64,000 bases of DNA. It comes from Isurus oxyrinchus. Its lineage: Eukaryota. Below the pieces are notes generated by a model, which saw nothing but the letters and a program-made list of their open reading frames with translations, made no database searches and was not told the DNA's origin. Position 1 is the first letter of the stretch; each line of letters begins with the position of its first letter. Both the position numbers and the translations under genes were made by a program. Shown here one piece after another: positions 1,838 through 24,975 of the stretch. The stretch covers positions 122,698,001-122,762,000 of the forward strand of contig JANJGN010000010.1 in assembly GCA_026770705.1 (NCBI GenBank), written 5' to 3'.

Positions 1838-2098
1838 TGTGGTAAAGTGAGGTACCCTGTTGTTTTAAGAGAATGCTAGTGCATTGATCATGTGACAACA
1901 CTGACGATTCATTGTACAGCGCGGGTGATTGGGAACTGTAAGTCTGGTTTTCAAGGTTTCTGAGTGAGCACCTATGTTCTAAGTCTCAATACTGTTTATT
2001 CTTACAGCAGTCTCCCCCCTTATTGATTGCAAGCAACATAGGAAGGTGTGCAGTTAGCGTTCGGTTGGCCAATGGACTCATTTACCCAAGACATAAAA
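1838..2098 (+). repeat. 5' LTR
   Basis: Aligns by eye with 4874-5170, with many substitutions and indels. Confidence 0.88.
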
Positions 2099-2529
2099 GT
2101 AGCGACAAGGATAAAAACATTGCAAGAACCCTGGTGAGTCCAGAAGATGGGTGAGCAAAGCTTTGGAAAGAGCATCTGTACTTTCACAGTAAAATAGGTG
2201 ACAGCCGGCAATTGGAGCAGAAAACAGTGCTGCTGTTTAAAATGTTTTTAAAACCCTGTAGAATTGCGATCATGGGGATACCGCCAAAACTCAAAAAGAG
2301 CACGAAACCCAGCAGAGAAAAGCCGACAGCTGCAGAGACAGAGTTAAAAAATAAACGGTGCCTGCTCTTAAAGCGGCATTACATTTAAATGGGTAAATAC
2401 ATGAAAAATGGCTATGGACAGAAAATCATAGGAGACCCTAGAGAGAATGCGACTCTGTGGTAAGCCAAACACCTAAACTTGTCATTACCTGGAAAGCCTA
2501 TTGGAAGCACAATCCACTTGCAGTCGTTC

Positions 2530-3945
2530 ACGATGCCGCAGTTCGGGTGTGTCGATCCATTCAGCCCCTTATCAGATGACTGATCTCAGTATGTCAAACA
2601 CCTGGCATTCTTTTTTACTGCTAACGACATTGTGGGGCAGGAGAAGAAGAGGCCGATTCTTTTGTCTTCAAGCGGGAGCAAAACATACGGGCTGATCCGC
2701 AGCCTTACGTCACCTAGTGCCCCAAACTCGAAGATTTTCAACGAGTTAATAAAATTTGTACAGAGCCACCTGAAACCAAAACCCTCAGTTACTATGCAGC
2801 GCTTCAAGTTCAATTTAATTCTGGAGGAGACAACAGCTGATTTTGTGGCCATTTTAAAGGCATTAACTGAGAATTGCGAATTCGGAACATCCATTAATGA
2901 TATGTTGAGAAACTGGCTGATATGCGGGATTGGAGATGATACTATCCAGAGGCGTTTGCTAACCAAACCTAGTCTAGATTTCAACAAGGCATTAGAATTA
3001 GCTACCACGATGGAGAGTGCTTTTAGAAATTCCAAAGTTATAAAAGAGACACAAAAATGGAGCCGTCCATCTGGTCGAGCTGGACAATCCGGCAACAAAA
3101 GTTGCGAAAACTTCAGACTCCTCGGAAAGGCAGGAAGCGCTCTCTAGCTCCAGACCATTGAAAAACAACAGTACTGCAGTGAAAACCCACAAAATGAATG
3201 AGAGAAATACATCCAGGCCTTCAGTGAGCAAACGACAACTCAAACAAGTCGCGTGCTTTTTCTGTCATGGCTACAACATAAGGCGGCGCTGCAGAGAAAG
3301 GCTAAAACAACACTATAAAGGCAGAAGGAAAAATTGTGAAATATGCCTCATGGAAGAACCAGAAAAAATAGAATCAGACGTCCATTCATTGTACAACCTC
3401 AAAATGGGTAGAACCAAGCCAATCCAAGTAGTCATTGTAGTTAACGGACAGCCCATTAAAAGTAAGTTGATATGGGACCGTTGATCTCCATCACTGGACA
3501 GTATAGGTTTAGATATCTGAGTAAAGGAACCCATCCTTTGAAGTTAGAAGTTTCGGACACAAAGCTAAGGACAAAAAAGCAAAGAACTGCGGCTGCTGGA
3601 AATCCAAAACAAAAACAAAAATAAAAATACCTGGAAAAACTCAGCAGGTCTGACAGCATCTGCGGAGAGGAACACAGTTAACGTTTCAAGTCCGCATGAC
3701 TCTTCAACAGAACACTGTTGAAGAGTCATACGGACTTGAAACATTAACTGTATTCCTCTCCGCAGATGCTGTCAGACCTGCTGAGTTTTTCCTGGTATTT
3801 TTATTATTGTTTTTGTTAAGCTGAGGACATACGTGGGTGAAGAAATCAATGTGAAAGGGAAATGTCAAGTCAAGGTGCAGTATGAGGAACAGTCTGCAAA
3901 ATTACCTCTATTTATAATGTCAGGCAGGGGACTGGCTGGGAGAGA
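2530..3945 (+). pseudogene. Disrupted Gypsy gag and aspartic protease
   Basis: Gag-like PKPSVTMQRFKF..LRNWLICGIGDDTIQRRLL..KALELATTME. Protease-region KPIQVVIVVNGQPIK and KLRTYVGEEINVKGKCQVKVQY..KLPLFIMSGRG. Frameshifts plus a Penelope insertion. Confidence 0.8.
3574..3817. mobile_element. Penelope-derived inverted (hairpin) terminal insertion
   Basis: Arms ~3610-3711 and ~3716-3815 are reverse complements and match the Penelope 3' end at 63305-63441. TSD AAGCT(A/G)AGGACA at 3562-3573 and 3818-3829. Confidence 0.88.
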
Positions 3946-3959
3946 TAAATCTTGAGGGC

Positions 3960-4808
3960 ATGCTAAGTTCCCAATTTGAAACCAGAAGTGTTGCTACAAG
4001 AAAAAATGAGTATGCAAAGACCCAATGGGAGAAGCCCGTAGAAGTGTTACACCAGGACAGAGTTCAAGCTGAAGTCAGCATCCTTCAAAAGAAAATGAAA
4101 AATCTATTAAAGGACTTTCATGCACTACAAAATTCAATCAGCTCCCAATGTGTGCCACGAAAAATATGTGAAGAAGAAAAGGAAGAGTTGAGCCTGTCTC
4201 TGGCCGAGTTAAAGAATGAATTAGCTGAAAAGGGACAACAATATGCAATTCCCCAGGAAACTAATAATAAGAATAGGAAAGAATTGGAACAGCTGAAGCA
4301 GCAGCTGCATAAAAGCCTTGAAGTTTTAAAGCTAGAAGGCCCTGAATTCTTAGAAGAGCTGTCAGAAAACCCAGCTACTGAGCTCATACACGTTCAGCTC
4401 ACACCTGAGACTAGTCCAGCCAACAGTAAAATTAAAGAGAAGACAGATACAGGTCAATGCTCCCAAGAAAAGGACACACAGGAAGAAAAAGAAAAAATTA
4501 TTGGCAGTCCTCGGAAAGAAAATCAAAAAGATTTTTTTCTTTCTCCTCTTTCTCCTCATACATCATCACATCATGTAGCTCACCACTGTATTGCTTTGTG
4601 CTTGTTGCCCTTTATCTGTTTCAGCTTGGATGGGAGGGGCAGCAGGAGTGAACATGACTGCACCCAGAAGATGCTGAAATCATCCACTGAGGGACATCGT
4701 GAGCAACTGTCCCTGGAAAGGTGGTCTCGGAAACACCAGTCAAGGTTGTTGGGCTACGACGCTCAATCCGACAAAGGAGGCCTCCTGAGAGTCTTGACAT
4801 GTAAATAG
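3960..4808 (+). CDS. 282-aa ORF inside the LTR element; N-terminal half is a coiled coil resembling UACA/RAI14/ANKRD24-family repeats
   Basis: Open frame from the ORF track, E/K/L heptads, motif ISSQCVPRKICEEEKEELSLSLAELKNEL. Expression unknown. Confidence 0.5.
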   Translation: MLSSQFETRSVATRKNEYAKTQWEKPVEVLHQDRVQAEVSILQKKMKNLLKDFHALQNSISSQCVPRKICEEEKEELSLSLAELKNELAEKGQQYAIPQETNNKNRKELEQLKQQLHKSLEVLKLEGPEFLEELSENPATELIHVQLTPETSPANSKIKEKTDTGQCSQEKDTQEEKEKIIGSPRKENQKDFFLSPLSPHTSSHHVAHHCIALCLLPFICFSLDGRGSRSEHDCTQKMLKSSTEGHREQLSLERWSRKHQSRLLGYDAQSDKGGLLRVLTCK

Positions 4809-4873
4809 TTATTGTGTAAATAGTTAATGTGTTTTAAGCTTGTTAGCTGTACTTTTAAGTAAAGGGGGAGGGA

Positions 4874-5170
4874 TGTGGTAAAGTGAGGTATCCTGTCCCT
4901 TTAAGAGACTGCAAGTGTACTGATCATGCGACAGCACTGATGAATCACTGTATAGCGCGGGTAACTGGGGACTATCTAATTCTAGTTCTGGAGGTTTCTG
5001 AGTGAGCATGTATGATCTGGTGCTCTGTTCTATGTCTCAATAAACCATCACTGTTTATTCTTACGTCAGTCTCTCCCCGTTATTCACTGTAAACAGCAAC
5101 TGGGGAGAACATAGGAAGCCGTGCAGTTAGTGTTCAGTTGGCTAACGAACTCATTTACCCAAGACATACA
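4874..5170 (+). repeat. 3' LTR
   Basis: TG...CA ends, preceded by a PPT, contains AATAAA near 5039. Confidence 0.88.
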
Positions 5171-5819
5171 AGTAACAATAATCTTCCTGTATTGTAAAGT
5201 GGCTTCTAATTTCTTCTGACATCTGAAAACCTTCTTTAAGAAGCCAATTTAAGAAGTATCTGTGCTTTGTTTATGCTTGTGGTTGGCCCAAATATGTCAT
5301 TACCTGGCACTGAAGAGAACAGGCTTTGTCCCTGAGGTGTCATCCTTGTGCAGTACCTTCCCCTGAAAATATGGGTGGACAGCTGAATACCATAAAATAA
5401 ATTATTTGTGCATGGAACTAGGTATTTACCTACATGATGCCTTTCTGCTGCTCTCAAACCAACCGATGGTTCAACGAATGAAGACCCCTGGATTATGAAC
5501 AGAGGCAGAATGACCATGGGGTTGCCATGAATCATTGCATATTCTCATGGAAAACCAGCTACGCAGCTGCACTCTAACAGATTAGGGATGGGCAATAAAT
5601 GCTGGCCTAGCCAGCAATGCCCACATCCCACAAGTAAAAAAAAGATTCTCATTGTGGCTGCTGCTGGTCAGTGGTGGTATGAACAAAATCATTTCCCCTC
5701 TTGAGTAAGCATCAGCACTTCCTTTTGCATCTGTAGACAGCAAACTACATAACACTGCAGATGCATGACTTCCCCTTTATAAATCCACACTGGATCTCTC
5801 TGTTCAGCTGAAAATTCCA

Positions 5820-24149: not shown

Positions 24150-24975
24150 ACAAAATAAAAACAAAAATGCTGGAAATGCTCAGAATGTCAGGCAGCATCT
24201 GTGGAGAGGAACAGAGTTAATGCTTTGGGTCAAGATGACCTTTCATCAGAAGATAGATGGAAAGGTTAGTAGAGCCAGCGCAAGGAGGGAGGGTGCAGGA
24301 AGAAGAAAAGGGGATGCCTCTGATAGGGTGGAGGGCAGGACAGATTTAATTACAAAAGATTTCATGGTGCAAAAGCCAAAGAGAGTGGTAATGGGCATCA
24401 TAAAGAGACAAATGATGTGTCCGGATGAGGTGTCGATGGCTACATAGCATGCTGCAGCCATCTGAATAAAGAAAGAAACGAGACAAGACCGAACTGGCAA
24501 AGAAAAACATATATATGTTATATAAACATATATATAAAACAGAATAAGATGGAGGTAGGAGTTATGATCTAAAACTGTTGAACTCAATGTTGAGTCCAGA
24601 AGCCTATAGAGTGCCAAGTCAAAAGATGAGGTGCTGTTCCTCGAACTTGCATTGAGCTTCATTGGAACACTGTAGAAGACCAAGAACAGAATGGGAGCAA
24701 GGTGGAGAATTAAAATGACAAGCAACAGAAAGCTCAGGATTATGCTTGCAGACTGAATGGAGGTGTTCCACAAAGCGTTCACCAGCCTGCGTTTGGCCTC
24801 CCTACAGTAGAGGACACTACATTGTGAGCAATGAATGCAGTATGCTAAATTGAAAGAAGGGCAAGTAAATTACTGTTTCACTAAGAAGCAGTGTTTGGGG
24901 CCTTGAATGGTGAGAAGGGAGGGGGTAAAAGGACAGGTGTCCTGTGCTTACATGGAAAGGTGCCGTAGGAAAGGC
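24150..24975 (-). mobile_element. Penelope 3' portion (GIY-YIG region and terminus)
   Basis: The reverse complement matches 62500-63441 in organisation; hammerhead-like CTGATGAAAGGTC..GACCC near 24230-24250. Confidence 0.8.

Follow-up and report, generated by a model that had tools for sequence, protein, structure and literature searches.

This analysis focused on an element at positions 1838–5171 of the window (the whole 64,000-nucleotide stretch of Isurus oxyrinchus DNA under study), which is a decayed member of a non-autonomous Gypsy family of 3.1 kb, here called family A, that carries a piece of coiled coil from host UACA where pol would be expected. That an LTR element captured host UACA is virtually certain, and it is very probable that the captured piece has been under selection at the protein level. 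The complete explanation proposed here, of a non-autonomous Gypsy family in which a Gag-protease-UACA frame replaced pol, the piece being captured once from RNA, transferred between lineages and kept for oligomerisation, is evenly poised. An earlier note, made from the sequence of this DNA alone, had described an LTR retrotransposon with a host-like coiled-coil ORF in place of reverse transcriptase (RT), RNase H and integrase. Going beyond that description, the piece was found to be an in-frame fusion to Gag-protease, to be apparently under selection, and to be common to several families.

The framework given by the earlier note, namely two LTRs, a primer-binding site, a polypurine tract and a target-site duplication, was confirmed. 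The 5' LTR (1838–2098, plus strand, with TG as its first letters and ..CATAAAA as its last) and the 3' LTR (4874–5171, plus strand) share 79% column identity, and are flanked by the 5-bp, strandless target-site duplication GTAAC (left, 1833–1837; right, 5172–5176). Duplications matching at four or five of five positions were seen in 14 of 16 full family A copies, compared with 31 of 240 mismatched pairs. The LTRs of Ty3/Gypsy retrotransposons follow a TG...CA rule at their termini; those of family A begin with TG and in most copies end in ..CATAAAA, not CA (window 2095–2098 and 5168–5171). The primer-binding site (about 2100–2112, plus strand) is decayed in the window copy, and in other copies is complementary to the 3' end of tRNA-Ser(GCT); a search with the primer-site pattern matched six places, and two of the four that were fetched are tRNA-Ser genes according to ARAGORN. 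The polypurine tract lies at 4861–4873 (plus strand). A leader stretch at 2281–2457 (plus strand) is 68–79% alike to the leader of another UACA-bearing family, C (L126:3956–4110), and is common to the two despite their differing LTRs and primer sites, making it a candidate for either a packaging signal or a trace of recombination. Outside the element, a 25-bp tandem array of about six units occupies 309–458.

All coding parts are on the plus strand. The gag region (2533–3400) specifies a capsid, a linker and one CCHC knuckle, and is followed by an aspartic protease (3401–3962). Both are present but broken in the window copy, as had been claimed, gag by a frameshift near 3053 and the protease by a frameshift near 3461, a hairpin insert and a deletion near 3930. 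Read from the ATG at 2533, window gag is 46% identical to residues 1–171 of the Gypsy protein P0006, and Gag gave 13 matches among Gypsy polyproteins at 42–52% identity, eight of which bear RT and/or RNase H domains. At the family level, the knuckle residues are retained in 17–19 of 21 copies, and the D-T/M-G motif of the protease likewise (D in 18 and G in 19 of 21). The hairpin (3574–3817, strandless) is a later insertion found only in the window copy, with 103-nt arms that are 95% complementary and a flanking 12-bp duplication (3562–3573 and 3818–3829); it is presumably like the inverted ends of Penelope-like elements, and partial copies of the repeat occur in the window near 24150, 33470, 45150, 48760 and 63310.

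The captured UACA coiled coil (residues 905–1026) occupies 3963–4301, in frame with the end of the protease, and a second UACA piece of about residues 1177–1200, with a weak similarity seen in the multi-family alignment, follows at 4302–4445. The family frame then ends within 4446–4504, at a common stop near 4502 carried by 24 of 30 copies, and gives way to a spacer (4505–4686) that is non-coding at the family level and read through by chance in the window copy. Next comes a remnant of the C-terminal tail of pol (4687–4804, ending ..LRRSIRQRRPPESLDM*), whose DNA is 62–66% identical to the tails of three pol-bearing loci. The previously noticed pol-type ending LRRSIRQRRPPESLDM* (4754–4804) does lie in a frame different from that of the open frame, and since common stops precede the tail, the remnant is not translated as part of the fusion. 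Between the window LTRs no RT, RNase H or integrase was found, again in agreement with the earlier note, and because these domains are absent from family A it is regarded as a non-autonomous derivative and not as an autonomous member of Ty3/Gypsy.

The open frame between protease and tail spans 3918–4808 and encodes 282 aa counted from the ATG at 3960. That it is open was correctly recognised earlier, but only about 3963–4445 is derived from UACA, and the length is partly due to chance because the family frame ends near 4502; the window copy passes that stop through private indels after 4444, leaving its last ~120 codons outside the family frame. In BLASTP the window frame matched UACA residues 905–1026 at 34% identity (E 1e-13), and the window DNA matched the host UACA exon at 62% over 213 nt (E 6e-15), with a score of 154 compared with 91 ± 11 in 60 codon shuffles, so that the proposed host origin of the coiled coil stands. 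The parent is a single 2.7-kb exon at G000:C25:4881192–4883918, with AG/GT ends and no stops, and 99% identical to residues 408–1316 of the shark UACA protein P0017. A HMMER search of 1.84 billion representatives returned two matches, both uncharacterized basking-shark proteins, and when one of these (P0016) was used as the query it retrieved three shark proteins at 58–60% identity (E down to 2.6e-39), all of which carry the name UACA. By these similarities, the captured piece comes from UACA itself and not from RAI14, ANKRD24 or ANKRD35, the comparison having been made with UACA proteins and the UACA exon. Other searches were less informative: Pfam gave no match to the window frame above its cut-off, a word-based search of longer proteins with residues 10–150 of P0001 gave none among 1558 candidates, and the ESM Atlas returned generic coiled-coil clusters alone and nothing specific. 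A single-sequence dimer prediction for the window UACA piece, with the alignment unused, scored 0.28, under the mark of 0.32, and was given weight neither for nor against.

A genome search with the family A segment gave 991 candidates, and all 40 that were scored are 85–87% identical, the window itself being 100%; candidate counts, for this and all other families, are first-look numbers and not copy numbers. The genome holds hundreds, and probably thousands, of dead UACA-bearing copies. The segment, the tail and a 3' LTR are present in all of 29 other family A loci, and in 27 of them gag or protease precedes the segment, which bears out the suggestion of a gene-carrying non-autonomous family in which the segment recurs within the same element. 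Full copies are 3.0–3.1 kb in 15 of 16 cases, and LTR pairs are present in 17 of 19 long loci, with a pair likeness of 76–93% that indicates an old burst. Defining a common stop as one found in at least 40% of copies (21 in the gag-protease alignment, 30 at the UACA end), a single frame runs from the ATG at 2533 to about 4502, through Gag, protease and UACA, with no common stops, against 39 and 28 in the other two frames of the gag-protease alignment. No intact copy or protein-level trace was seen.

The window copy alone among 30 has the entire stretch open, with no breaks over 166 codons, while the others average 2.9 and none of the 29 is unbroken. This could be taken to mean that it has been co-opted as a gene, one of the options raised by the earlier note, but the Poisson chance of such a copy is 0.053, among about a thousand copies, and its private changes (8, 10 and 5 at the three codon positions) show no third-position bias, the third-position share ranking 26 of 30. 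Since, moreover, the last ~120 codons are off the family frame and the upstream gag and protease are broken, domestication of this copy was rejected as extremely improbable. Three sequencing runs guessed to be RNA contained contigs with short, diverged pieces of the family, some of them frameshifted and none spanning the stretch.

Besides A, there are at least three UACA-bearing LTR families, B, C and D. Family B (3939 candidates) is organised as LTR, gag, protease and UACA residues 909–1036 and 1174–1214, followed by a pol remnant of 1.5–2 kb that is out of frame, in 30 of 30 loci; it too has a single frame to the end of UACA, apart from three partly common stops ascribed to CpG decay. Families C and D are LTR elements with longer UACA pieces than those of A and B, and no protease or pol is detectable in either. 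Family C, found through the P0016 search (12038 candidates, 150 scored, overlapping with other families), has one long frame of ~495 codons (24 copies), and D copies have 78–86% DNA identity to the host UACA exon. The two share a 70-residue head (6822 candidates; L223–L252, L136:5921–6139), behind which come UACA, TPR or the two together, with deletions in many patterns. The short head presumably resembles a Gag N-terminus; compared by profile with six Gypsy proteins it showed no significant likeness (probability 0.3, E 0.18), Pfam was blank, and no pol-bearing parent was seen. Two C-type copies, L081 and L082 (G000:C3:164.84–164.88 Mb), are 86–90% identical to basking-shark P0016, and are probably the same old insertion, annotated as a gene in the basking shark.

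An internal deletion from UACA residue 1027 to 1177 is common to A, B and C, indicating one capture followed by nested trimming, and it is likely that the piece was captured only once, from host RNA. In a UACA tree of 29 rows the host falls among D and C, with A and B together beyond a branch supported at 100/100. The capsid tree (26 rows: six A, six B and the 14 pol-bearing loci whose match was long enough) places A as sister to the UACA-free loci L041 and L053 (99/96), and B mixed with the UACA-free L043, L044 and L051. Joining A and B was rejected for the Gag capsid (p-AU 0.0013), and the protease tree has the same shape without rejecting A + B on its own (p-AU 0.057). Since the UACA tree joins what the Gag tree rejects, the cassette must have changed scaffolds at least once, and it likely passed between Gypsy lineages via recombination; in both the A and the B scaffold it sits at the same junction behind the protease. 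The sister loci of A (L041 and L053) carry RT, RNase H and integrase in that order, of which B has a remnant. The segment is foreign to autonomous members: among 30 pol-bearing loci, UACA was found only in L058, which is a B copy with a truncated pol. As to age, 22 C/D copies were compared at the 40 sites that set the Carcharodon protein apart from those of Mustelus and Scyliorhinus alike, and they agree with the last two at 27, with Carcharodon at 11 and with neither at two. This suggests an old capture, and hints that it predates the split of carcharhiniforms from lamniforms, the sites being unpolarised without an outgroup. At L076:5368–7333, an A copy and a B-like UACA element are arranged head to head.

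UACA is not the only host gene involved. Copies of D run on into a piece with a weak Pfam match to Nucleoprot-TPR, and a search with this piece gave 1646 candidates, of which 150 were scored and all were above the cut-off, the best being a true exon with splice sites. The host TPR gene (L193:1501–1686; G000:C16:74249780–74271232) has nine early exons over 21 kb, the first with a start codon, and in element copies the nine adjoin without introns. Four junctions, spanning host introns of 0.9–8.5 kb, are precise to within 6 nt in 52 of 66, 64 of 69, 46 of 47 and 43 of 44 loci of families D, C and E, counts that include places fetched twice; junctions 1–2, 4–5, 7–8 and 8–9 were not scored as precise, owing to internal deletions or approximate exon limits. 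Precise exon-exon junctions across host introns mean that TPR was taken from spliced mRNA. An LTR-mediated capture of a host mRNA segment had been proposed for the window, and of this the capture within an LTR element holds; the mRNA route is demonstrable for TPR and not for UACA, because the captured UACA lies entirely inside one exon. Family C has remnants of the last two of the nine TPR exons, and TPR is not detectable in A or B. A PDB sequence search with the TPR-like piece gave one match at chance level.

Family E (1579 candidates; L216:2381–7431 in G000:C8, and L253–L282) has a SCAN-type Gag, a CCHC knuckle and a D-T-G protease, with TPR beginning about 10 codons behind the latter. Over 2.2 kb, one frame has no common stops compared with 59 and 91 in the other two (30 copies). 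The protease has no BLAST relation to P0006, the similarity of Gag to SCAN (E 2.9e-5) is under the Pfam cut-off, and pol is absent. A SCAN-related Gag, together with an integrase-before-RT order, is typical of Gmr1-like Gypsy elements. Behind TPR there are about 250 further codons, helical-looking and without a Pfam match, that are possibly a third captured host gene. The comparison made for selection on TPR between E and D gave 1.86 (0.84–4.89), with an interval that includes 1. Judged from sequence, the TPR fusion of E is convergent with the UACA fusion, at the same protease junction on an unrelated scaffold.

Protein-level selection on the UACA piece was assessed over residues 940–1026 (86 codons), using pairwise distances minus within-family decay, with paths through elements only. 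The net ratio of third- to second-position divergence was 3.4 (2.0–6.1) for A-B, 4.1 (2.2–9.8) for B-C and 3.4 (2.0–6.3) for A-C, and 0.92, 1.38 and 1.47 within families. Third positions that are 3.4–4.1 times more diverged than second positions between families argue that the piece was selected as a protein. Because dN/dS at kappa 1 was saturated for A, position counts and a kappa of 3 were relied upon, the A-B third positions being near saturation. The earlier proposal to compare dN/dS among copies gave 1.06 within A and 0.65–0.79 within B and C, while between families the values were 0.28 (net A-B, 0.14–0.49), 0.34–0.54 (B-C) and 0.46 (A-C); C against the host gave 0.77–0.93, which overlaps 1. 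Net dN/dS was 0.14 for gag (capsid), 0.14 for the protease and 0.41 for the linker, and selection on the UACA piece is weaker than on gag or protease. Under neutral drift over such distances, 156 codons would stay free of stops with a chance of at most 0.0015. Heptad periodicity was found in six of six family tests (p 0.004–0.07).

These patterns weigh on two alternatives. One is that the captured piece yields small RNAs against UACA or TPR, and here TART offers a precedent, being directed against nxf2, piwi or aub in the portion of PMC13534243 consulted. Base-pairing needs the opposite of what was found, namely third positions that diverged fastest and an A-host DNA identity of 62%, making this very improbable and, for A, already largely refuted. 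The other is that the piece is an inert in-frame filling, where any open, soluble, helical extension is tolerated and stops or frameshifts are not, for reasons of RNA stability, translation-linked packaging or spacing. The moderate dN/dS values (0.28–0.57) and the repeated trimming along the series D, C, B, A would suit it, and hydrophobic positions are kept at 0.72 compared with 0.69 predicted from general first- and second-position constraint; with no excess conservation there, a loosely constrained helical spacer fits equally. Families A, B and E nevertheless keep 150 to more than 300 codons open when a stop behind the protease is one mutation away, the long untranslated pol remnant of B implies that 3' UTR length is not limiting, and both identified donors are coiled coils, placed at the same junction on unrelated scaffolds. 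A mere filling is thus unlikely, though by no means negligible.

The preferred reading, in which the coiled coil is retained for oligomerisation, would run as follows. An old shark LTR lineage (D) would have acquired spliced TPR mRNA along with a portion of the large UACA exon, C would have arisen from it by nested deletions, and the shortened cassette would have landed behind the protease of two Gypsy scaffolds (A and B). Template switching is standard for LTR elements, and could have copied a co-packaged host mRNA into the element. Gag-protease-coiled-coil elements would form particles of their own and obtain RT and integrase by trans-complementation from pol-bearing relatives, which do exist in the same genome. 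The coiled coil may take the place of those Pol domains by which protease monomers are normally joined, or may aid co-assembly of the fusion protein. TPR-kinase fusions, in which the TPR N-terminus is the dimerisation donor, are a familiar case of such a property. In the part of PMC3291649 consulted, a leucine zipper placed behind the HIV-1 protease increased Gag-PR multimerisation and cleavage, and it also led to cleavage that came too early and to a lower particle yield, which means that such an addition can do harm. Protease activation is not the original reason for the capture, because C and D have no detectable protease. The role of the coiled coil as a putative oligomerisation module is therefore offered tentatively, at slightly below an even chance.

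A quite improbable alternative to oligomerisation is that the pieces pair with host proteins at the nuclear periphery, docking particles at the pore or freeing unspliced element RNA. TPR resides in the nuclear basket and UACA close to the nuclear envelope, TPR was taken by at least two unrelated scaffolds, and anti-host roles are known for host captures of Drosophila telomeric elements (part of PMC13534243 consulted). Against this, A and B have no detectable TPR, the A piece is just 34% identical to host UACA when a decoy should track its host, and a literature search linking TPR, retrotransposons and unspliced RNA found nothing.

Returning to oligomerisation, a wider proposal can be made with reservation, and is somewhat more likely wrong than right: that shark Gypsy elements have repeatedly become semi-autonomous by replacing the whole of Pol with a working oligomerisation module made from host coiled coils (UACA, TPR), and that a mobile cassette, predating most of the lamniform lineage, hopped across successive scaffolds, scattering thousands of fragments. 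If true, retroelements would here have domesticated host genes, the opposite of the usual direction. Host-gene capture by vertebrate LTR elements is rarely documented and usually read as dead cargo or an RNA-level trick, whereas in this case a host protein fragment apparently worked for the element for very long, switched scaffolds and has a counterpart in the convergent capture of TPR. As a natural experiment, such elements bear on the part that Pol plays in activating the protease and assembling particles, and on the reasons why certain non-autonomous elements are more numerous than their helpers. In sharks they also give rise to spurious gene models of the 'UACA-like' and 'TPR-like' kind, and the two 'uncharacterized' basking-shark RefSeq proteins look like such copies.

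In the literature searched, which did not extend to Repbase/Dfam or subscription journals, nothing was found on retrotransposons that carry UACA or TPR, and the portion of PMC13343379 consulted mentions neither of these genes nor Gypsy. Consensus entries that lack a UACA or TPR annotation may exist in repeat databases and in the supplements to papers on shark genomes. The capture of host mRNA and elements restricted to Gag and protease are already known, and what is new is this variant. The gag-onc fusions of acutely transforming retroviruses are similar in joining gag in frame to a host sequence with loss of pol; the shark elements differ in having neither env nor a signalling domain, and in their germ-line retention over very long times. 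In structure, family A resembles plant TR-GAG, or GAG-PROT-only, elements, termed semi-autonomous, which keep Gag and protease and have lost RT, RNase H and integrase (PMC13570524, in part); the plant text, as far as it was available, describes no captured gene, whereas in the shark element Pol is replaced in frame by a selected host coiled coil. In bdelloid LTR retrotransposons, accessory modules, some of them coiled-coil, are likewise swapped between unrelated retroelements, but in the portion of that source available these ORF3s are separate, follow an intact pol and have no traced host parent (PMC5408684), while the shark parent exons were found in the same genome. Drosophila telomeric LINEs resemble the shark families in having taken up the same host genes repeatedly and convergently, and differ in acting via piRNAs (PMC13534243, in part), the shark signal being at the protein level. 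Finally, CrocERV29 (KIT ligand) and CrocERV31 (nectin3) are, like the shark families, vertebrate LTR elements with captured host mRNA under purifying selection; they are retroviral, and in the part of PMC4299795 consulted have their signalling or adhesion ORFs as separate units, located between pol and env or replacing env, whereas the shark Gypsy elements fuse a structural fragment to Gag-protease in place of pol, have moved it between scaffolds and have reached high copy.
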